From Minutocellus sp. GHC0000111 (taxonomy: Eukaryota), in the NCBI GenBank assembly GCA_977018835.1, contig OZ361256.1, positions 5,952,001-6,016,000 on the forward strand: a DNA stretch of 64,000 bases, given 5' to 3'. Shown piece after piece: positions 4,400 to 44,291 of this stretch; within the stretch, counting starts at the first letter, position 1; every line of letters begins with the position of its first letter. The translations under genes and the position numbers were made by a program. Below the pieces are notes generated by a model. The model saw only the letters and a program-made list of their open reading frames with translations, had not been told where the DNA came from and searched no databases.

Positions 4400-7000
4400 T
4401 ACTTGTTGTAGGTTGTTTTGCCAGACAAACATGCCACTGAAGATTCCTTTTGCACTCCCAGCCTTTCAAATGATACTTCTGCTGGTCAGGCATTGCATGG
4501 CATTGTCTTTCTACTGACACGTGTACATACATGTAGATCCTCCACCCACTTGACTGACCATGAGATTGATTGATTGCTGCCCCCTCCGGATGTTGTTCAC
4601 CAGAGTGTTGCAACACCTGCTTGCTTCCCCATGACATGGACTGGCTTTTGAGTGTTGCAACACCTTCTTGCTGTCCTGTCAAACTAAAAAAAGCAAACTG
4701 CCCCGATGTTGTTCTCGTCTTGTAACTTGAGGCCTCTCAGCTGGTGCTGCCTTCTACATGCTCTTCATCGATGTCCTCTCCTTCATCACTGCTGTCCTCT
4801 CCTTCTTCTTCATTGCTTTCTGCTGCCTTGGCCCTGCGTGCTTTTTTGACAATCTCCTCCAAGGCTTTGATGAGCTGTTGTCGACACTTGGCCTTGGCTC
4901 CCTCATTGACCAAGCACATCTCGAAACGAAGCCGACGTGACTCCTTGTCATCTCGCAACGAAAAGCGGACGTGACTGGTTCCTTGTCGTCATCATTCAAC
5001 GGGAACTTGGCCACCAAGGCGGCCTTCAACTCTCCTCATCAGACCTTCGCAGCACCAATGGCTCCCATCGAGGATGCACAGTTGCCGGCACCGTCGGCCA
5101 CGGGGGCTGGAACACGACAAGAGACTTTCCATCCAGCTCAGGACTCTCATCCACTTACTGTAGAGGTAAGGGTAGACTAATGCTAAACCTGATGCTATTG
5201 TCTTTCACAAGTGCACACCCGCCGAGCCACACTTCATCCTCTTCTTCCACTTCTAGAGACAATGATAGCCTGGGAAGGATCTTCGGTCACATTCCGAAGC
5301 TCACTGGACGAGAATCGTTGTCTACGGCACTCATAAAAGTATGTGAAGTATGAGCATACCAAGATCGTTCGCATCTACACATCCCCACCTCGATTCTCAG
5401 ATGCCCAACTCAGCTCTACTTGGCCTGATGAACGTGGCACCGAGCGTTCCTTCCCATGGCATGGATAAAGCAATGGCTGCTACCAATACTTCCAGTTTGA
5501 AACATTATCGCGTACACATCATGTACAGCATCTTGCCCACTCTTCCGCTCATGACAAACGGGGAATGGCGGACAGCAACATGATAGTAACCTGTGGCTGC
5601 ACGTTCCGTGGGCGAGCGACCCGACGCGCTCAATGTTTCCGGAGCAAGAGACTGCACCACTGTCTGAGCTTTCGGTACCGGCGATCGGTTCTCTCCATAA
5701 GCCCTCAACGACCCGGATAGTAATGCTGACAAGGACCAGGACCCTAACCCTATTCATCTTTGGTAAAAACGTGCCTTGTACATAGCTGCATTCAATACAA
5801 AAGGGATGTATCATCTGCAACTCTGGTAAAATTGTAGATCCTATTGAAAAATTGAAGCTATGAACTAATATATTGTCGCAAGCAGACTGAAGTGGTTGCA
5901 CTTGAAACATCTCAGGTCGCCCATTCGGCGCCAATCTCATAAGCCAGACGGGGACGGGCGCCGCTTCAGCAAAGCTTGCTCTTTTACGAACGCCGCTGCT
6001 TCCGATCTCAAACTCTTCGAGGGTGGTCGCTGAGGCATCACTAGCCTATGAAGCAGCAATCGCGATACAGCCTGTCGAGCCATCGATCCGTCACCAATTG
6101 GCTGCTCTCCGACGACGGCCTGCCGTTGAACTACCTTTTCAAATCAATTCATCGCACAGCAACGATCGCAAGGCAAAAGTAGCAGTCCCCATGTTCAAGT
6201 AATTCGTTGTGTTATAATGGCAGCCAACGACAGCAGGGTTGATGTCGGCACGGAGATCAACCTTCCCTTGAAAGCCAACTTGCGCCGCGCACATGAAAGC
6301 AAGCTCTCGAATATTACTAAAGGCCTTGTTTGTCGTCGCAATCAAGAAGGTCTGCTTGGGTAGACTGCAACATCAACCTCACATGCATGGCGTGTCCTCT
6401 GGGGAGCCCTGGCCCAAGGCAGGGTGGAGCACTGATCCTAGCCGAATGGGTTGCGAACCTGTGGCTTCTCAGGTGATCTTGGAGGCCTTGTTTGTCATCC
6501 CAAACAAGGGCTGGCCTGGCTTGGTCAAACTGAGCAACACGTCAAGTACCCCCAACGTCAAGCATGTTGCTGCTGTGTCAATGTTGTTTCCGCCTCTTGG
6601 GTCATCCCATGCTGAATCTTGTGACCTTAGTCCTTTTGTTTGTCGTTGTCAACCAGCCTTACACTTCAACAACAGGATGGTTCCCTCCAAGGAGCAATGT
6701 CGTCTCGGCCTTTCTGCTTGACACCACCAATTGCCATGATTCCGACAGATGGGGGTGGTGGAAGGAGGACAAGGTCAGCAAGAAGAGCACGGTTGGCAGC
6801 CTTCTCGAGGGTATTATTGACCTTTTTGTTGGTGAGGGCATTTTGTTTGTGTGGGGCGCATGGTGGGGATGTTGCTGTGCTCTGCCAGGAAGCAAGCTCT
6901 TCTGAAACTTTCTTTTCTCCGGAACGCAGTGTTCTACTGCATGTGTACATGTAGTTCTAGTCTGGTTTGACACACACTGATGCATTCACTGCTCATTCTT
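4400..7000. pseudogene. Decayed, CpG-eroded repeat/pseudogene-like region of unknown origin
   Basis: No long ORF. Stretches at 4400-4950 and 6350-6950 are rich in TG/CA and poor in CG, with broken protein-like fragments on the minus strand. Adjacent to the LINE. Confidence 0.35.
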
Positions 7001-7059
7001 TGCCGATTGGCTCAGAAAAGCTACATGTAGTCAGCTCAGTATCGGCTGAACGACTCATG

Positions 7060-8500
7060 CTACATCGACGCCAACTTTGGAATGAAGCAGATGGCCCAAC
7101 TTCTCCAACACCAGTATGAAGTACACCTCATCTTCGTCGACCGAATTGTTGTGGAAAATTATGACTCGATGCGGTCCCCAACAGTCTGATTTTGGTGATC
7201 CAGAAGCATATCGCGACGTCAAGATTGATCTACACATCGGGAAGGAGAAAGCCACCTTTGGCTCTACCTGCGGGGTAAAGCAAGGCGACAATCTTGCTCC
7301 CATCCTGTTCATCATGTTTATGAATTGCGTAGCGGAGAGCCTCGATGACTTGTGGGATTTTGAGCAGCCTAACCTTCAGTATGTCCCAGACGAAGAAGAA
7401 GGTAGAGCCCGAGGCCAACTCACGAAGATGCCGGTGAAGACTAAGAAGGGTGAGAGATTTTCTTTTTTCAAGTCTTCCTATGTTGACGACACCGCATTTA
7501 TGTTGTTGAACCGTGAAGATGCCATCAGAGCCACAAAACTTATCGTCTCCCATTTCAAGCGATTCGGCCTGACAGTACACACCGGTAGTAGATCCCTCGG
7601 AGAAGGCTCCAAGATAGAAGCCCTGTACATCCCACCACCTACCTAGGTAGGAAGGAACCGTACACCGAGGAGGAGCTACTGGCAGCAACTGCTGACATTG
7701 TTATCGACGACGACCGATACATATCGTACACCGATGAATTCAAATACCTCGGCAGCCTGCTTGAGAAGCATCTGAACGATATAGTGGACATAAATGCCAG
7801 AATCAAGCAAGCCAAAGGCCAATTCCAAGCGGTGAGTGACAACATCTTCACCAACAAGGATGTACCACTACCCGAGCGACTACGATACTACAATGCCCTC
7901 ACCGTCAATACAGCACTATGGGGATGCGAAAGCTGGGCGCTCAAACCATCACTGATCAAAAAGCTAGAGTCCATGCACCACAACTGCCTCCGTCAAATCG
8001 TAGGGTATAACTTCTACCGAGACGGTAAAGTCACAAATGAAGATATTAGAGCGGAAGCTCTTAGTGCCTACATGTATACGATGGAAACCAATCTAGACCT
8101 AAGGAGATGTAGATGGTTAGAGAAGGTTGCAAACATGGGAGATAACAGATTGCCTAGAAAGTTATTTGGAGCCTTCTGCCATGGAAAATCTAGACGACGC
8201 GGCAAAGCCAAAGCTACAATCCGACATGGATACCGTGACACTCTAGAGAAACTAGGCTTCGGATCTAGAGCAAACGACCTCAGTGAATGGATGCCAGCTG
8301 CCAGAGACCCAGTTCTATGGGCTGAAATAGTGGAGCTCCGACTAGGATTAGTATCCGGCACGTATACAAAGTACAAATTCCGTCAAACGACGATTTCTGA
8401 TTCTATTTTCGGTTGATTTATTCGGACAATTGCTACAGCGGATTTTACATTTAGAGATTAGGGAACTCAAGCCCAATAACCTAGGTGAGTACTCATCATC
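7060..8500 (+). mobile_element. 5'-truncated, disrupted non-LTR retrotransposon (RTE-like reverse transcriptase)
   Basis: RT motifs HLIFVD (partly deleted), ELLWKIM, GVKQGDNLAPILF, YVDD, FKYLGS, RIKQAKGQF, LWGCESW, RRCRWLEKVANMGDNRLPRKL. Frame broken by an 8-bp insertion at ~7641-7648. Short (CAT)n at ~8494-8503. Confidence 0.9.
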
Positions 8501-15791: not shown

Positions 15792-16699
15792 CATCTGGGG
15801 AAGCTGGCATCACCTGTAGCCGGATGATGGAAACCTGTGCCGTCTGCGTCTTGGACGGAACGAGGGCTTTCCCTCACCTTTTTTGGACCGAAGATGAAGA
15901 GAGTTTGCGAGCGCCGCACGATGAGCGATGAACGTGTTTCCGATGATACTCGCACATCAGCAGCCACCAATTGTGAACAAAATGCTGTAATAAACTTACC
16001 AGTATTTAGATAAAGATCTACATACATGCAGTCTGGCATTCTTCTCCATCGTTGTATCGTCCGTTGCTACATGTACAGTACAGGTGGATTCGTAGATTCA
16101 ATCATTCTAGCTAGGAACTGTCGCGATCGCGATCGCTTGCGCTGCAAAGAAACCCGGAAAATGAAACGACACGCATGCTCATTTTCCAACCCGAGGAACA
16201 ATGGCCGCGAGGCGACACGAGCCCAATTTCCAAGCACCCGAGGAACAATGACAAGAATCCAACCCCTCTCAATTACTTTGCTCTCCCCGCTGTTGCTAGC
16301 GGCGAGCAGTGTCCTGGCTTTTCAGCCGGCGATTAGTAAGGTGACATCTTCTTCGACTCTCATGTTGTCCAATCGACGGCGCGGCGCAACTAACTGGAGA
16401 GATGTGTCTCTGATGCTACCGTCGATGACTCATCGGCCGATGGCGATGGCTTGATCGACTTCCCACCTCCGCTCACCGGTCTTCAGCGGACGAAGCGTGC
16501 TATCGAATTCTACAAGCGTGCTCTCCCTGTGCTGGCGGCACATGCAAGGCAAAAAGGAAAAATCGAACTTAAGCTGTGAGACCGACCTGCTGCCAGTGAA
16601 GAAGAGGAGCAAAAGACATGGGCCGATTTGGACGAATGGGGCTCAACAACAATTGCGGAGACCATCGCAGACATGAAGGGGTTGGTCTACACACACAGC

Positions 16700-19600
16700 A
16701 GCAGCAGAGCGCCAGGGAAAAAATGCAGCTAACTGGCGTTTGTCTAACTAACCCTGCTACTAATTTGTGCGCTAATGAAATGACTTTTACTTCGAACAAC
16801 CGCATCAGAAAGAAACATTTCACGAAATTGTTCTGCGAACGACACCTTCACAGAAAGTCACAAATCACAACACTTGGCAGTCCGAGCTACTTTGTAGTGC
16901 TGCGCATATTCTTCACAGTCCACTCAACTTCTTGCTTTTATTCGGTGGATTTTGTTTTGACAGATTCAGTCTGGCTGTCGTCCGTCATGCTGCACCTTTT
17001 CCGCTTTCGCTGATGCACGCCGACCGTCCATCACATATCAACTCGTTGATACTGCCTTGCATCATCGCCATGATGTAGTTGCGTGGTATTGTATCTCTCG
17101 CCCTCCGCCGCCTCTGGCGGCATGGCTGGCGCCTTTTGGCGCGCGCGCGAAAGCATTTTCCCACACGTCACGCCAGAAACAATGTGACGTGGCCGATTTC
17201 GCTGTTTGATTTTTTTTGGCCGAGCCGACGCCGCTCTGCGGAGCAACGATGATCGATCATTCTCGCTACTGCCATTGATGGTATACCGCCTGCCTGGTCA
17301 CCCATCCACCCATCGGATCGCAACGCAACCCTATCGCCTTTATCGGACCATCCGTCGGCGCTGCCATCATCCCGCCCGTCCAGAAGGGCTGCTCGATATT
17401 AGCAGCAGTCGTCGGCCACCAAATCCAAATCCAATCCGGGGGATCATTTCAAAGTAGACCGTCTCCAGTCTGCTCAATCCAATCAAACTCCCAGCACCCA
17501 GTGCACTCAACAACGAGCTCGCCTTCTACTGCCACCATCACCTGTAACCCCTGTAGTGCTCACCGTCATCATGTGGTCCAGCGGCCGGTCGAAGTTGAAG
17601 AGGATCCGTCGGTCGGCCAACCGCGGTGCCGACGCATCGGCCCGCCACGCCAATACTGGCTGCCCTGGTTTCCTTTCTGCCGATCCGCCCACGGGAGCCC
17701 GGAAGAAGAGCAAATCGGTCGTCGGCCCCGATGGCATCGGTACCGACGGTGGTGTTGCCGACGGCGGCAACAAGGACCCGGCCCCGCCGGCGAAAGTGAG
17801 CGCTGACGGCACCAACGATGATGCAATGGAGGTTGATGCCATTGTTGCTGCTGTCGGCGTACGGTTCCTTGGGCAGATGGCAAGGGCAATCAAAACGATT
17901 GAGGCCGAACGCGACCCTGTGGACGTTGCTACAGAAGCAGAGCGACGAGATGCCCTCGTCCGCCAAATTGAGGTCACGACTGAACGCGTTGAACGCGACG
18001 AAATGATGACTGCCGAGGAGAAGAGGGCCACCGCGTCGGCACACTTCACGGCCCTTGTGGAGAGCAATCCCAACGTGAGGGCAATGGTGAGTTTAGCAAA
18101 ATAATAATATTATGCATTGCCTTTCATGTCCAATGTGCATTCATCTTGGTTTATCTAACTGTCCTTTCCTTTCATTCATGCTTTCATTCTATATGTTGTA
18201 CGTGCAGATGGCCACCAGCGCAGTGCCCTCCAAGGCGGCGCCCTCGAAGGCGGCTGCAGCATGGCCGCCAGTCCTCCCCCCTACGTATGCCTCCTCCACG
18301 TCGTCTGGCATGGTCCCTGCCGCGCTCCCGACCCAGCAGGTGTTCCGCCATTTTGACATCAAGATTGGCCAAGGAGGCACCCATCCCTCGGTTGTCCCGA
18401 AGATGAGCAGCTCGATGATACCAAGTTGCCCCCGACTACCTGCTAGCAGCACCACCATGATACCGAGCCTCGGCCTTCATCACCTCAATTCCGACCAGCG
18501 CCGTTGGTCTTCTACTGGCAACGTCCCTTCGTGTGTGCAGAAGAAGCTGGAGGACGAAGCAGCGATGTACGAGAAGGAGAACGAACGTGCCGCAATCGAG
18601 GAAGGCGGTCGGCATGGGACCTTGACGGCGTACAACCATCCCATGAGAGGCAGTGGCCAGGGGGTTATGAAAGCCCTACTTGCGCATCCTCAGTGTGGCC
18701 GGTCTATTGCTGGATGTCTTACTGGGATGGATGCTGTACAGATGCTTCGCGCATGCAAGTGGGATGCGCTAGGCGTCCAGGTTCTTGATAACGTCATTGA
18801 CTCCACCGCCATACGAGAGATGAAGACCAAGGCCGCCAAGGATGCGATCGCCGCGACCGACATCTTGACAGAGGTCCAGCACCAGACCAAGGAGACGGCT
18901 GCCTTTTTGGAGAATATTATGGCACAAATTCGGCCAACGGTCACTTCTTCGGACGGTGATAGCGACGACGACAGCGACGATGACGACGGGGGGTACGGGT
19001 TTGGGAATTGTGATGATGACGAGGATAGCGGAGCTGTGCCGCCATCACCGCCGTCCTCACCTCCGCCCTCTCACAGCCGTCGCGCTCTCGGAGACCTGAC
19101 GAACTCGTCGACCAAGCCTCCCAAGGCCGCTGCCCGCCGCCGCACCGCCGATTCCGAAATATCGAATCAAGATGCCATCATCAATGGTAAGAGGGAGCGT
19201 CGCACGAGATACAGCAACAGCTTTGACGATGATGTTCTCGCAGAGCACGGTTACTACGATCCATCGCAGCCTGAACTCAAGGAAAGTGCCGGCAAAGCTG
19301 TGGACGACTATGACTCCGATGACGAGGAGGATCACTACTCTGATGAGGAGGCCAATTTGAACTTCGATGATGAGGAGGAATACCACTCTGATGAGGAGTT
19401 CGACGCCAATGCCGATGCGGTGGCCAATTTCGATGCTCCCATGAGCACGCGGAAGGTCGAGTCCAGCAAGTACTACCTTACCGAGGATGGTAAAAGAGTA
19501 GACGTGCCCAGTTGCAGCCAACGCAAATCTGACAACCTCAGAACAGTCAACCTTCGTTCATTGATTCCAGACCGTGGAAATTTCGGAGATGGCACGGTAG

Positions 19601-20615
19601 TGGCTGAGACGGACATTGACACCACCCGCTTCGAGTTGCCCGTGATCCAAGCGGCGCATGACATGGCCAATCGTGGAGTTATATCGTTGCAACGAGCAAA
19701 ATCCGGCCATGACTACCTGTTTTCGGATCTGGTACTGGGAGGTCGAGTCGACCCAATCATCGAGGAAAACAAGGACGTCGCGGGTCCTCTACTCGCTTTG
19801 TCTTGCTGTCTTAGAGCCATCGGTGTTCTGAAAGCACGCCTTCAAATCTACTTTGGCGAAGGCAGGACGGACATACACCATGACCATCCATTTGCTACGG
19901 TGCGCCTCCTCATCAAATTGTCCGGCACGATCAAGTGGTACAAGTCGACGTCCAAGATCGATCCTGTTCTTCACGACTCTGTGGGCGACGACGAGGCGCG
20001 CGTTGTCAGCCTTGTTTGCGGCGGCGCAGAGTCCTTTGCGATGGGCAGGCTGTACTATGGCGCACCACCCACCAACGTCAACCCCCACTCGTCAGAGCCT
20101 CGATCTGATGGAGAGCCATCGGTGTCGATCATCTGCCAGCTTCCATCAGGAACGGACAAGGACGAGGCCACTGAGAAGGTGCTGAAGATGCTCACTACGC
20201 TTTTTGATGAAACCACCCTCACCACCCGCCCCGAATTCAAGCGGCAGAGCAGGGACGGTGGAGCTCCATCACAATATTTCCAATCCTCTAGGGGGTCACT
20301 GTGAACTATCTGGCTGTTATCTTGACTACCTCAGCAAGGAGGAGATCAAGAAGTGTAACGACGAGGGCTTCTTTGAGCTTAGCGGCGAGGAGAAAATCCA
20401 GGCGCTGAGGGATGCAGGCAATTGGAATGACAATCCCCAACAGGTTCTGACTTGTGGATGCGGTGTAGATTTTGACACTTTCAATGGCATCAGGATCCAT
20501 GTCGCTCGCTGGTGCAATGAAGAAGGAGTTAAGGGATACTGGAAGAAGTTGGGGGTCAAAGCATTCTCTGGCGAAGAGAAGTATCAGCACCTGCTCAAGT
20601 AAGCTAAAGTAATTT
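16700..20615 (+). mobile_element. Insertion within the ABC1K gene (unclassified element; ends not resolved)
   Basis: Lies between nearly contiguous ABC1K motifs (MKG... and VISTRVDLF) and carries its own spliced gene. No clear TIR/TSD recognised. Confidence 0.6.
17571..20602 (+). CDS. Insertion-borne protein: coiled-coil/acidic N-terminus, possible 2OG-Fe(II) dioxygenase-like domain, C-terminal CxC..H..C Zn-finger-like motif
   Basis: In-frame intron 18087-18207. LQIYFGEGRTDIHHD...VRLLIKLSG...FAMGR...PHSS...SVSIICQ. Frameshift at a G-run near 20290 links to CGCGVDFDTFNGIRIHVARWC. Confidence 0.55.
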
Positions 20616-23062
20616 CGTTATCTCTACGCGAGTTGACCTCTTTCCTCCCGCGTACACTGACAAATTGGCTCAGCTACAAGATGGTATCGAACCAATGCCT
20701 TTCGAACTCGTTGAAGGGGTCGTACGGCAGGAACTTCTTGATAGCGCCCCTTTGTCGGATTTGTTCCTTAATTTTGACAAAGAACCTCTTGGGGCTGCCA
20801 GTATTGCACAAGTCCACAAGGCTTCGCTACTCGACGGACGTATTGTCGCGGTGAAGCTGCAGCGTCCCAATGTCGAGCCGAAGTTACTAGGCGATGTAGC
20901 AAATCTGAAACGCATCAGCAAGGCCTTGGCGAAGTCTCTTCCCGTGGATTACTACACGGTGTTCTCAGAGCTTGGAGAGGCACTTATCAATGAACTTGAT
21001 TTCCTTTCAGAGGCAAGCGCAATGAGAAAGATTAGCTACGCGGTTAGTCATTGCAACGATGGAACGCCCGCCGACCCACCAGTAACCATTCCACGTCCCA
21101 TCGGCGAGCTTGTCTCCAAGAGGGTGCTCGTGATGGACTTTGTATCAGGAACTCATCTCAATAGGCTTCAAGAGACAATGAAAGAGCGTGGTATCGAGCC
21201 TGGTTCGCCCGAGGCAAAGCTTGCGGGGAGAAGAATTCTCAACAGCTTGTCCTCGGCTTTCGGTGAGCAGATTCTACTCAGAAGCAATACTTTTGCTTTC
21301 ATTTACTTTATGCAACTCACCCTTATGCATCTCCTACATCAAATGAATGACTTCAATCACCTACCAACTCAGGGCGCATGATATTCGGGGCAGGTTTTAT
21401 CCATGGAGTGAGTTTTTACCTGGCTTATGCTCGCTCGGTTTATCTACATCAACACATTTCACCCTCTCATTTTCTCGCCTTTCGTCTCCTCCTTCTTTCC
21501 ATCGTCTCCAATACCTCTACCTCTACCTCTTTATAGGATCCTCACCCAGTAAGTTTAAAAATATGCTTGTATGCTACAACTGCGATGTGTCCGTTACTTA
21601 TTTCCTATGCCAATATGCCGATAATTTGCTTGGTCGGTCTCACGTATCTTCTGCGTTAATTTATTTCTTCAACTCAACTCACATTCCAGGGCAACATATT
21701 CATCGGAGAAGGCGGCAAGGTTGCATTGATTGATTGCGGTCAGTTCAAGGCCCTACCACGCACTCAAAGAGTGCAGCTGGCAAAACTAATCTTGCAGGTG
21801 GACGAATACCAAAAGGCCGAGTGCGTGGATGATGCAAACGAGGCAAAGGCGAAACTTGCAGGTTTGATTAGAGATTTCGGCGTGAAACTTATGCCCGAAC
21901 ACGAGAACGACGATGATCTAGCGGCTGCCGTTGCCTATTCCTTTTGGGGATTCCGATAGACCTTTGCCAGGTGGATACAGCACATCGGAATTGGACGAGA
22001 AATCCCCAATCAACCTGATTGCCTCGTTTCCCCAAGAATTTGTTTTGCTTGGCAGGGCAACAGTTTTACTCAAGGGTATTGCCAAGCGCCTCGATGTTCC
22101 ATTCTCGCTTGCCGAACGTTGGTCCAAGGGATGCAAATTGACAGTAAGTGCGGCATCTGCGCCGCAGCTACCTCTCTGGGGGAAGGATGTGGTGGATGAT
22201 CGTGACTCCGGGGGAACATCATCAGCCTCGAGTAGATCTAGCATGAAGCAATCTCAACAAGGAGGTGGAAGAGCCGCCGACAAGGACAATAAGATCCAAT
22301 TTCGCCAAGTTGCGCGTTTCTTTAAGGCCTGGGGCAAGGGCAAGGCACGTCGCTTCATCGAACGTGTGGTGAAGAAATTGCCAGAAGGCCTGCGGGCCAA
22401 AGTCTTGGAAGCGGAGTTGCGACGGATGGAGAGGGAGGATGCTGCGAAGTAGATCTAGCTAGAGTTTAGCTAGAAGCTATTATTATTATTAATCATTATG
22501 TATGTCTATGCTACATATATATATAGCTAGAGTCAGATTCATGCTCCGGAATCCGGACGACCTACCTGCTGCATCGAGGTTGAGTCGGTGAACTTGGTGG
22601 CGCGCGCGCGCCGGCGCGCGGCGACTTACACTACCAATGACCCATAAATTGGAGAACATCCGAAGCAGCACAAGAAGACATTCGAAATCGGAAGATTTGC
22701 TGGCGTGCGCGCTTTCAGCTCCGTTGAGCCGTTGAGCGCGAGCGTTGGCCGACCTTCCCTCAAAGCAACACTAAGTACTGCAATACTACGTAGTACCTCC
22801 CTTGCGCTTGTATCGTCGATGAAGAGAAAATTACTTACGTCGATTCGGCCGAACCGCTTGAATTTCATCGGTCGGCTCATCTTCTCTTCAATCTGCTTGC
22901 TTCCAAGCGAACACCTGAATCGAATCGGCCGGATCGAATCGAATCATCGGATCGAAGCAGTGAAAAGAAATTCTCTCCTGATTTTAGGATTGCTTCTTTG
23001 GTTTTGACTCTGCTCTTCATCAGTCACTACTCAATAATCACTCATCGCGAACACTCAACATT

Positions 23063-40352: not shown

Positions 40353-40610
40353 ATCTATCAAGTGTGATCAATTGCGTCGTTAGCAATTGTAGCAAATTGT
40401 CCTTGAATGCCGTGCAATCGATCGATGCACGTCCGGGGATGGGAGATACGAGATGAGAGGTCGGTCGGGAGATGTTGACGAGTTGCGACGCTACGTACGT
40501 ACACTTTACGTACATACGCACGATACGTAGAGTCTACGTATCTGATGACCCCGCGCGCGGAGGCCAGGCATCGACGAGGGGCCTAAATAACAAATCAGGG
40601 ATCAGCCGTA

Positions 40611-43600
40611 CCTTTCGGTTTCAGAGGATTTGTAGAGGGTATACCAATAACCCCTAAAAAAGGTCATTCTTGCACCCATTTCTCATTTCCCACCACACGT
40701 GTTTTGTTAGTCGATGTTCTCTTCGGGAGGAACGCAAATGCTCCTCAACTCGTGGACATCTCTACTGGACCTGCTCATTCAGTAGGTTGCCACCGACCAG
40801 TAGTATCCACTGAATTCGCAGGTCCAGTAGATTCTGGCAGGAACACATGTATTTTTTGGTCCCCCGCACACCCTCGCCGACCGACCGCACAACCAACCCG
40901 CAAATTTTGTGACGATGACGACGACCAACCAGACCACGCCCAAAAAATACAAACGCAGCAGAACTTCGTTCTCAGGGAGCAAGAGAGGCAACACCAAGGC
41001 ATCCAGGAAGGCGGCAAAGGCGGCAGCTGAGCCGAAAACACCATCGCCGAGCGCAAACACGTCGAAGAAGCGGCCACGGTCAAATTCGCCCCCGCCAAAC
41101 CGTCACCGTCGTCGGCGAAGAAGAAGAGGACGGCCCCTCCTCCTATCCCCATGGCCTTTCTCCTTGCAGCAGATGTCATTCGAAGGGCTGGTAAGGATCT
41201 GTGGTGGAGAGTAACCCCCGATTCCTGCGCGGCAAAGACGACATTTGTGTTGGTTCTCGCGGCAGAAATGGGAAGACGTCCTCCCCCCCTGCTTTCATCG
41301 AGGCCGACTTGTTGCGTTCCAAGTCCGTCGGTGGAGGAAAGTATGAGCTACAGTACAACGAGGAAAAATGGAAGGATATGCAGCAACATCTCAAGGAGCA
41401 TTGTAGTTTGAAGTTGCACTTGTCGACGTGTCGGCCGAGAGGGAAGACAAGACGCAGGGCGCTTTGTGTTTGTGCTCACAGGTTGCGTAAAAAGAAGGAG
41501 GACAACCACCACCCGAAATTCTCTGGACCGGAGGGACAGAAGGTGCACGAGAAAAGAAATCCCGATGAAGTTCTGTTCTCTGGGCGCTCCTCGACTGTCT
41601 TAGCTACTAAGCTAGGTGAGAGGTTGTCAGCTCACAGAAAGGAGGTGCAGTCAGCGCATTGCGAAGCAAGAGCAAAATCACTAGTCGACGAGGCCAAGAA
41701 ACTGGGTTGGATGCCAGCAAGTCTCCTCAGCATGCTGAAGGGAACTGGTGATGCTTCCGCCACTGAAGCAGCTGCAGCCTCCCCCAATGATGAAGGTTTA
41801 GGAGGAGCCGATACTTCCGTTGTCTGTGCCACCTCCAGTGACATTGATGAACAGGTAAAGGTCGCTCTCGGCCTCGACTTTGTTGTTCGGATGGCCAACG
41901 ACGATGACATGCTCCGTCCTCCTCGTCCCAATGCAACCGTCACCGAACCAACACCAATCAGAAAAGAAAAGCAGGCGAATGAAAGAATGCGGTTCAGCGC
42001 CGTGGCTCTCGCGGATTGGTGGGGATGCGGCGACCCAACAACTCGCACGCATGAAGACCGGCAACAAATTGCAACTGCCGCGTGTCGGCAAGTTGCGTGC
42101 GATCACGGTTATGCCAAGTCAACCGGTGGTTCTCAGCTTTACAAGTGGAGAGACCAGCTCTACAAAAGCCTTACTGATGGCATCAGCAATCCCATCGGCA
42201 GAAAGGAGGTTCGTGGAAGGAAGGCATGCACGGACATGATCGAGGAGAAGGAGCCAGGATGTCTCCGCGAGCTGTGTCGGCATGCTGCTCGGATGAAGGG
42301 TGCGATGGCAACCTTTAAGGAGCTAGCTGACTGTGTGAGCGCAAAATCAGCTACTCCAGATGAAGATAGGCTGACAATTTGTCTCCATCGTCTTCAGCTT
42401 TTTCGCTGGTGGAAAAAGCAAGGCGGTAAGGAGAAGTCGTCGATCGAGAAGCCGAGGCTCACCCCCGAACATTGCAGGAAGCGACTTGATTGGATCGAAA
42501 AGTGGGAGGACATTACGACCGATCCCAACATTCCTGTAGCGTGTCTTGATGAAAAGTGATTTTACACTACTACTCGGCGACGAAAGATCAAGATGTTGCC
42601 ACTTTCTGACGAAGAACTAAGTAGTCCGAACCTCGCGTCTATCCATGCTTCCGAGGCAAGCCCGAAAATTCGATCCAGAAGACACCCTGTCAAAGTTATG
42701 CATCTTGGAGTTGTTGGCCGACCAATGAAGGATGAAACCAAAGACGTTGATTTCAATGGGCGCATCATGATCAAGAGAGTCGCCAGGGAGCAGAAGGTGG
42801 AAAAGCTTACGCGTAATCAGAATTTCTCTCCAGATGCTAAGGTCAACGATGCGCTAAAAAATGACAAAGATTGGCGATTGGCGCGAAATTTACGACGAGA
42901 ATGCTGACATGACCGCCGGCCATCTTTGCGACCACATTGCCGAAATCTACGGCCTTTCTGAGTTTGTTACAGAGCGATTGGAACTTCAATACGAGGACTA
43001 TAAATCCGACGGTCAGGCAAAAAGTCGCAAGCATGCCGCTGTTGGCTACAATCAAAAGATCTCGAGTCTCAAGCGACACACTCCTGATAGCAATGGAGAG
43101 AAGGTGAAGGTTGAGATCGACGACCTTGAGCTCGGGGTGCGGTATCAACGGGGCGATAAGGTTACCAAGGACTGTAGCTGCGACTCCAAATGGATGTTGG
43201 AGACTATGAATGAGGTCGGGAAGGCGATTCGAGACGCACATCATTGGGTGAAGTGGGATCCACAAAATATTCAGGAGTCTGATGTTACATGTCTTATGAT
43301 GGACAATGCCGGTGGTCATGGGTCCAATGAAGCAGTTGAGAAGTACACCGAGGACCTCAAAAACAAATATAAGATTGAGATAATCCAGCAGGTTCCTCGG
43401 TCGCCCGAGACAAATGTTCTTGATCTCGGCATCTGGATGTCTTTGCAGTCGGCCGTCGAAAAGGAGCATCGCGGTCAGAAGAATGATGCGAATGCTCTTG
43501 ACAAGACTGTGATGAAAGTATGGGCCAATGTCGCATCAAAAGAGGCCTTTCTCAATGTATTTGGAAAACTTCCAGTGATATATAACAACATCAAGAGAAG

Positions 43601-44104
43601 TCGTGGCGGTAACAATCTTGTGGAGACCAGACGGGGAAAGGCTGTTCTCTCGCAAAAATTGCCGAGGAAGAAGCTGAAGAGGATGGTGAACCACTCTGGC
43701 CAATTGATGCTCCCGGCGAAGATGATGACATTGAGGACGACATAGATGAAAATGATGAAGACTATGGAGTCATTGATTTGCTATAACTTATCATAGCATG
43801 TCCATTTCTATTCATTACATTTTGATTTGGTGCTTCCAAAAATGTGTATTTTTTCCCGGGGTGAGGAATGCAAATGTCGAAAAAAATCATCACATAATGT
43901 ACATTTATTGGTTCTGGTGCACAATATCTCTCGACTATATGTAGAAGTTGGTGACCATAACTTGGTTCTTGCCCCGACTTCCATCTTGGCCGTCATTTAT
44001 TCCTCGGAGTTAGAAAAAGTGAGAGCTTGGATTTTTGGTCTGGTGTGGTCGTGTTTCTAATACGTCATCATCACGTCACTTTCAAATCCTCTGAACTCGA
44101 AAGG
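40611..44104 (+). mobile_element. Full-length Tc1/mariner-superfamily DD39D DNA transposon (3494 bp) with an inactivated transposase
   Basis: 22-bp TIRs CCTTTCGGTTTCAGAGGATTTG (40611-40632) and CAAATCCTCTGAACTCGAAAGG (44083-44104), 2 mismatches. TA on both sides (40609-40610, 44105-44106). Confidence 0.95.
40915..43790 (+). pseudogene. DD39D transposase pseudogene
   Basis: LDEK*F (W codon read as TGA at 42557-42559), KVMHLGVVGRP, MMDNAGGH...QVPRSPETNVLDLGIW with exactly 39 residues between the 2nd and 3rd Asp, GGNN. Frameshifts near 41100-41200, 42860 and 43710. Confidence 0.9.
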
Positions 44105-44291
44105 TACTTCTAGGTCCTACGTAGTAGGCAAGGAGAAAGTCATCACCACAACATCCTCAAGAGAACTAGCCAGGAGTAGCCCACTAGCCTAGCTAGACTA
44201 GTACGTGAAGTAGTCGGACGAGGATCAAAGGTACCGCTTGGCCATTTGACGTGGCCATTTGACTTACGATCGTAGTCTCCCCCGAGCAAAC

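Follow-up and report, generated by a model that had tools for sequence, protein, structure and literature searches.

The only earlier description of a targeted mutator that changes A:T to G:C concerns a single alga, and gives neither an established enzyme nor, in its main text, a rule for the flanking bases. In Bigelowiella natans, integrated NCLDV and virophage DNA undergoes TpA-to-TpG/CpA hypermutation (Mettrop et al., 10.64898/2026.01.13.699255), which in the viral inserts was measured at some 6e-7 per site and generation, roughly 1000-fold over background in clonal lines, and the TpA-poor coding sequences of this organism are enriched in DDE and RT domains. Its authors propose an adenine deaminase, with an ADAT2-like candidate, as the unproven agent. 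Repeat-induced point mutation (RIP) changes C:G to T:A and thereby creates TA (10.64898/2026.01.13.699255). Two further systems bear on the chemistry, as TadA-derived editors prefer a UACG/TACG motif (PMC8052359), and deamination of A in DNA by ADAT2 has been reported (PMC10354150). The mutation baseline of diatoms is opposite, GC to AT by 2.21-fold (PMC6604790). The initial annotation of the diatom locus described here knew of no named pathway for a change of this kind, a statement that the Bigelowiella report amends. A literature search, whose coverage excluded most subscription journals, found no report of TA hypermutation in diatoms.

The locus lies within a 64-kb window, the whole stretch of DNA that was analysed, and is an element of 3494 nt bounded by 22-nt terminal inverted repeats (40611..40632 on the forward strand and 44083..44104 on the reverse strand). 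The repeats are 92% complementary over 25 nt including the target-site duplication, a TA outside each end (40609..40610 and 44105..44106, forward strand), and the empty site here is G-TA-C, itself an RTAY. A transposase gene on the forward strand (40849..43786, start approximate) encodes a product with 82-91% identity to an intact 852-aa homologue (P0003), but is broken by frameshifts, a TGA at 42557-42559 and a 7-nt tandem duplication near 42870-42883. Its catalytic Asp codons lie near 42548, 43302 and 43422. In five relatives (P0003, P0011, P0020, P0021 and P0023) the second and third Asp are 39 residues apart, and the spacing between the first and second is long in five relatives (226-248 aa). 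Relatives of the transposase gave weak, sub-cut-off matches to Pfam DDE_3 and HTH_Tnp_Tc3_2, and a Pfam search of the window's own transposase pieces recognised no family. By these sequence features, the element is a broken DD39D-type Tc1/mariner DNA transposon of about 3.5 kb. PlantMar (DD39D) elements of the Tc1/mariner group combine DD39D spacing, short terminal inverted repeats, a TA duplication and a length of 2-6 kb (PMC7325037). The present element is like them in its spacing of 39, its 22-nt repeats, the TA at both ends and its 3494 nt, and unlike them in its diatom host and long first spacing, a likeness drawn from spacing, ends and length.

The family is present in high copy, with 275 members in one protein cluster. 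At least half of the element's words were contained in 19 of 24 listed sequencing runs, nine of them RNA runs, although RNA libraries can include DNA. Runs X18 and X19 share about half of the element's words but do not cover the host genes, perhaps because the host is scarce in them or because they stem from a different host. Scanning metagenomes with the C-terminal ORF of the element confirmed no loci, and a search of viral contigs for the terminal repeat pattern gave no match. The 5' untranslated part contains a hairpin (40761-40831) with 23-nt arms, 91% complementary, and a 25-nt loop, beside which deletion joints in run X10 begin (40832-40833). Both flanks are TA-rich (40480-40545 and 44105-44240), with TACGTAC and CTAG runs and a TA observed/expected ratio of 1.3-1.4, which fits insertion into TA-rich intergenic DNA.

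The stretch 41380-42988 is short of TA in the RTAY context. The initial annotation had counted about 35 TA dinucleotides there and only one RTAY, and this count was reproduced exactly: one RTAY (ATAC at 41811), 16 YTAY, 10 YTAR and 8 RTAR. Across the window 657 of 2166 TA are RTAY (30%), so that about 10.6 would be expected in this stretch (binomial P 5e-5). The deficit persisted after correction for a window-wide scan, whether by 5000 permutations of the TA labels (P 0.024) or by length (P ~8e-4), and the stretch is the longest RTAY-poor one anywhere in the window. The interval originally claimed ran on to 43330 and contains 4 RTAY among 48 TA. Depletion holds as far as 42988 and stops near 42989, and the 3' third (42989..44104), with 14 RTAY among 44 TA, is not depleted.

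In order to establish the direction of change, we compared sister copies of the transposase with intact homologues. Of 112 related proteins, 65 served as sister copies; the window's own protein, four intact proteins of the P0003 type, members of more distant families, fragments that did not align and one duplicate were set aside. These 65 are part of several hundred, probably come from one assembly and are related by descent. At the 11 Tyr codons of the core with a purine before them (R|TAY), the sister copies read Cys 155 times, His 150 times, Tyr 35 times and something else twice, and Arg was absent there as at all 19 R|TAY Tyr columns. At six Tyr codons that follow a pyrimidine (Y|TAY), they read Tyr 133 times, Cys six times and His once. 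Intact homologues have Tyr where the sister copies mix Tyr, Cys and His, which makes TA the ancestral state and TG or CA the derived one, as had been claimed; the equal yield of TpG and CpA products likewise bears out the strand symmetry first proposed. The two strands are thus affected equally, and each site has changed once. All seven motifs originally cited as former Tyr sites (VACLDEK, KVMHLG, RRHP, VTCLMMDN, GCLRELCRHA, KACTD and WWGCGD) have Tyr in intact homologues and Tyr, Cys or His in sister copies. At the T of the VTCL motif the intact homologues read Ile, and the WWGCGD site is Tyr in four outgroups and Phe in the closest intact relative. Measured against the inferred family ancestor, 19 of 32 differing codons in the window copy are TA changes. 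At 41546, 43032 and 43077 every sister copy reads His (27/27, 19/19 and 15/15) where P0003 reads Tyr, which suggests that these three sites were already changed in the founder copy and that it spread nonetheless.

Flanking bases govern the change. Rates were taken as amino-acid-visible A>G per copy-site, each given for the strand that carries the changed A, and with 14 doubtful columns dropped they fell from RT[A]Y (413/1172, 35% per strand) through YT[A]Y (127/679, 19%) and RT[A]R (22/428, 5%) to YT[A]R (2/313, 0.6%). A>G at TA amounted to 564 of 2592 copy-sites, compared to 32 of 15020 (0.2%) at other adenines. With the doubtful columns all kept, RTAR rose to 10.7% and RC[A]Y to 4.9%; the latter class consists mostly of mis-polarised TA sites, since all C[A]N gave 14/4024 once those columns were dropped. 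Sites changed in at least two copies numbered 50 of 74 for TAY, 4 of 31 for TAR and 4 of 624 outside TA (TAY versus TAR, P 3e-7). The main determinant is the pyrimidine after the A. With a purine ahead of the T, the per-strand share in the core is twice as high (medians 0.39 versus 0.20, P 0.003), and higher still after allowing for saturation. RTAY is changed most because it matches TAY on both strands and has the 5' purine that raises the rate. The proposed restriction to RTAY thus survives as a ranking, and the target is wider, being the A in any 5'-TAY-3', whichever strand it lies on. The RTAR site at 42110 does not follow this rule, with changes in 13 of 33 copies. Among YTAY half-sites, those followed by A (TACA, TATA) were changed in 0-10% and those followed by T (TACT) in 12-76%, hinting that a further flank position matters. 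Transversions were absent from RTAY adenines (0/2014) and rare at all TA (4/4251), in agreement with the A:T to G:C change first reported. RTAC and RTAT were changed about equally (205/472 and 167/422), which rules out ApT-type 6mA as the cause.

Differences between DNA copies show the same signature. Contigs of four runs were placed on the element, and among the 40 of 62 differing places listed, contigs of other copies have TA where the window has TG or CA and TG or CA where the window has TA; four sites occur in all three states. Of the listed transitions inside the element 19 of 22 are TAY-type and none TAR-type, whereas in a gene-rich 20-kb control stretch 3 of 22 are TAY-type (P 2e-6), the control rows being 39 of 440 places clustered in one paralogue-like region. 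Over all places in run X10, transitions and transversions stood at 45:7 in the element and 197:142 in the control. The signature is absent from the differences in the gene-rich stretch, a limited control, and its concentration in repeats, proposed at the outset, is borne out to that extent. The left flank outside the inverted repeat (40418..40570) occurs in run X10 in two versions at equal depth, one matching the window and the other changed at 7 of 7 RTAY and 1 of 4 other TA, on both strands. This second version is an allele or a paralogue, and its depth suggests a low-copy repeat.

The changes appear to have accumulated one by one. Of 215 pairs of adjacent changed sites within a copy, 105 shared a strand (shuffle mean 0.496), which rules out strand-coordinated editing in a single pass, and there was no strand skew per copy (P 0.22). 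Among 34 copies 33 patterns were distinct, and all four Cys/His combinations occurred in 39 of 45 site pairs. The burden per copy ranged from 27% to 100%, a spread exceeding all 2000 shuffles. This fits slow, independent changes in each copy, although gene conversion could also have scrambled patterns between copies. Within the same copies the centre of the element is more affected than its 3' part, with Tyr codons changed in 56 of 74 cases in the core and 6 of 41 in the lightly affected 42989..44104. In the core of the hypermutated zone (41400..42760) 372 of 894 RTAY copy-sites per strand were changed, relative to 41 of 278 outside it.

A second signature consists of short tandem duplications. 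Duplications of 2-7 nt are frequent in the window copy (40611-44104) and in its sisters, and deletions are few. Relative to other copies, 11 of the 12 listed insertions in the window copy are perfect 2-3-nt tandem duplications, none of them on TA, which rules out transposon excision footprints as their source. Sister proteins carry 27 one-codon insertions at 25 places and five deletions at three, alongside 85 distinct non-TA amino-acid changes. Indel and substitution places stood at 42:62 in the element and 48:440 in the control, under different thresholds, and in the diatom baseline indels arise about 3% as often as substitutions (PMC6604790). Contigs of runs X2 and X6 lack the window's insertions and those of X1 carry some of their own, and the duplications are less well protected from assembly error than the TA changes.

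Elsewhere in the window, some 3.9 kb separates the two pieces of a plastid-type ABC1 kinase gene (16080-16900 and 20608-22452). Its best named matches are Seminavis (76%) and Cylindrotheca (75%), with Nannochloropsis and Prymnesium at 61-62%, which marks the host as a diatom. The dead 5' piece has one stop and no RTAY among 22 TA, and in it His replaces an invariant Tyr and Thr a conserved Ile; the 3' piece has kept its conserved R|TAC Tyr codons (3/3). The two changed sites hint that targeting is regional. Runs X10 and X14 contain a paralogue-like version of this gene, about 10% different. Three patches of the window outside the element, chosen after the fact and including the ABC1 5' piece, have 5 RTAY among 60 TA. 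Two degraded patches (4530-5340 and 6100-7080) have TA observed/expected ratios of 0.32 and 0.39, CG ratios of 0.60 and 0.58, and 0 and 5 RTAY, and TACATGTA-like motifs adjoin both and also occur near 16070, 8670 and 8725. A broken LINE-type reverse transcriptase fragment (RVT_1, 7086-8416) has normal TA content and 24 RTAY among 75 TA, and none of 80 related metagenomic loci (24-62% identity), judged by eye, was depleted of RTAY. Not all mobile DNA is therefore affected, and because these metagenomic relatives are distant and have ordinary RTAY shares they are uninformative on this transposon family.

We regard a real, region-restricted TA mutator as almost certain, and the rewriting of TA in transposon copies as likely to be a DNA-editing defence of the host. 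Adenine deamination, which the initial annotation offered beside mutagenesis by a modified adenine, has a somewhat better than even chance of being its chemistry; pure transitions, a context specificity of more than 100-fold, the resemblance to the TadA motif and the ADAT2 reported to act on DNA support it indirectly. In such a scheme a putative host enzyme would deaminate the A of TAY to hypoxanthine in silenced, repeat-bearing chromatin, and hypoxanthine would be read as G at the next replication, fixing A:T to G:C. The first change would destroy the TA, so that the partner strand of a palindromic site would be spared. Changes would build up slowly through mitosis, site by site after each insertion, as measured in Bigelowiella, and targeting would be by region and not by sequence class. 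Transposase function would be lost in the process, which is what suggests a role in defence. Two observations go against a deaminase. TadA-type enzymes are known to need a single-stranded substrate, and the lack of strand bias, though the element is present in RNA runs, suits a single-strand enzyme less well; nor would deamination be expected to yield so many more short tandem duplications than deletions.

In a double-strand spectrum a changed A in TAY is indistinguishable from a changed T in RTA, and a mark on thymine would leave the identical signature. A TET/JBP-type enzyme might mark the T of R-T-A in silenced elements as 5hmU or its oxidation product 5fU, and mispairing with G would then give T>C, much as 5mC decays from C to T at CpG. 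Symmetric decay site by site suits such a standing duplex mark, and in dinoflagellates 5hmU silences transposons and is said to prefer TA and TC dinucleotides, although diatoms go unmentioned in the relevant passages of that source (PMC11572971). Since 5fU is reported to take both C and G opposite (PMC2673420), it would add T>G, and no RTAY adenine showed a transversion; we consider a thymine mark unlikely, though it is the main rival.

Error-prone synthesis or missing mismatch repair in heterochromatin, through which T:G mispairs at RTA as well as slippage duplications would escape repair, would account for both signatures at once, the tandem insertions with their raised indel share as well as the TA changes. 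It leaves the specificity unexplained. Errors of the polymerase-eta type at WA and loss of mismatch repair have broader spectra, and in these copies A>G at AA (12/4786) and GA (6/6210) is more than 100-fold under that at RTAY, with no transversions. We therefore give this explanation a lower standing still.

Basecalling or assembly error at modified RTAY in long reads is very improbable. The sister proteins probably come from one assembly, and random, strand-balanced calls together with small indels could mimic the pattern. However, Illumina contigs from RNA runs of two other studies (X2 and X6) carry derived CA or TG at ancestral TA (for example 42334, 42367, 42427, 42569, 42702 and 43289) and share many of the window's derived letters, and their presence in cDNA argues against miscalling at a DNA mark; window genes of more than 1000 codons are also open. 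On the three points that the initial annotation named as able to refute it, intact homologues do not read Cys or His at its seven motifs, the differences between copies are biased by context and short reads carry the derived letters, and none of the three refutes it.

A reversed direction, in which classical RIP turned CA/TG to TA or CpG decay turned CG to TG/CA, is scarcely credible. Diatoms have RID-related DNMT4 genes (PMC9998398), and C>T in the copies is about 10-fold commoner at CpG than elsewhere (38/4104 at CpG, present but small). Outgroups, however, have Tyr and not Cys, His or Arg, Arg being absent from the R|TAY columns, and the CG observed/expected ratio in the core is 0.94, so that outgroup polarity refutes such a source unless all intact relatives converged on Tyr. 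Selection on the element against its own RTAY-like target site, for which the G-TA-C of the empty site might speak, deserves equally little credence, as conserved Tyr was lost, copies differ, flanking DNA changed, intact relatives keep their Tyr codons and dead copies cannot be so selected.

What is new here is the half-finished, copy-resolved state of TA hypermutation in a high-copy diatom family, which extends the process to stramenopiles. The measured fingerprint, namely TAY and best RTAY, transitions only, no strand runs and a central gradient, provides a yardstick for candidate enzymes. If deamination is correct, the agent would be a natural DNA adenine editor, and if a thymine mark is correct, a new mutagenic epigenetic base. 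In genomes of this kind a local mutator also distorts GC content and the ages of transposons. Our broadest reading is offered tentatively and is less likely than not: a natural diatom DNA adenine editor would act at 5'-TAY-3' in silenced chromatin, on either strand, and would defend the genome in rhizarian algae as it does in diatoms, with repair nicks seeding the tandem duplications, and would form a reverse-chemistry counterpart of RIP across SAR.

Among known systems, TadA/ADAT enzymes and the adenine base editors derived from TadA share with this process the change of A to G with T or U before and C after (UACG/TACG, PMC8052359), which the TAC preference seen here resembles. Their natural substrate is tRNA, however, and here TAT and TAC are changed about equally often, with more changes where a purine lies two bases upstream. 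Ascomycete RIP is similar in that context-specific transitions on both strands cripple repeats and can reach their flanks, but TA is destroyed here, and the polarity from TA to TG/CA is not that of C:G to T:A; the direction is opposite to that of RIP and CpG decay, as had been noted initially. The closest likeness is to Bigelowiella. Changes in both cases are nearly pure A:T to G:C transitions on TpA, yield both TpG and CpA and run opposite to the AT bias of the genome, and both appear restricted to foreign or silenced regions, judged here from the limited control and the intact Tyr codons of the ABC1 3' piece. The present case differs in its host, a diatom and not a chlorarachniophyte, in its target, a high-copy DNA transposon and not single-copy viral inserts, and in the tandem duplications that accompany the TA changes. 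It also comes with a measured TAY/RTAY flank rule, of which the main text of the preprint gives none, although its Fig. 2B or Table S2 might contain such a rule. By analogy, the process in this diatom appears to work like the hypermutation of Bigelowiella.
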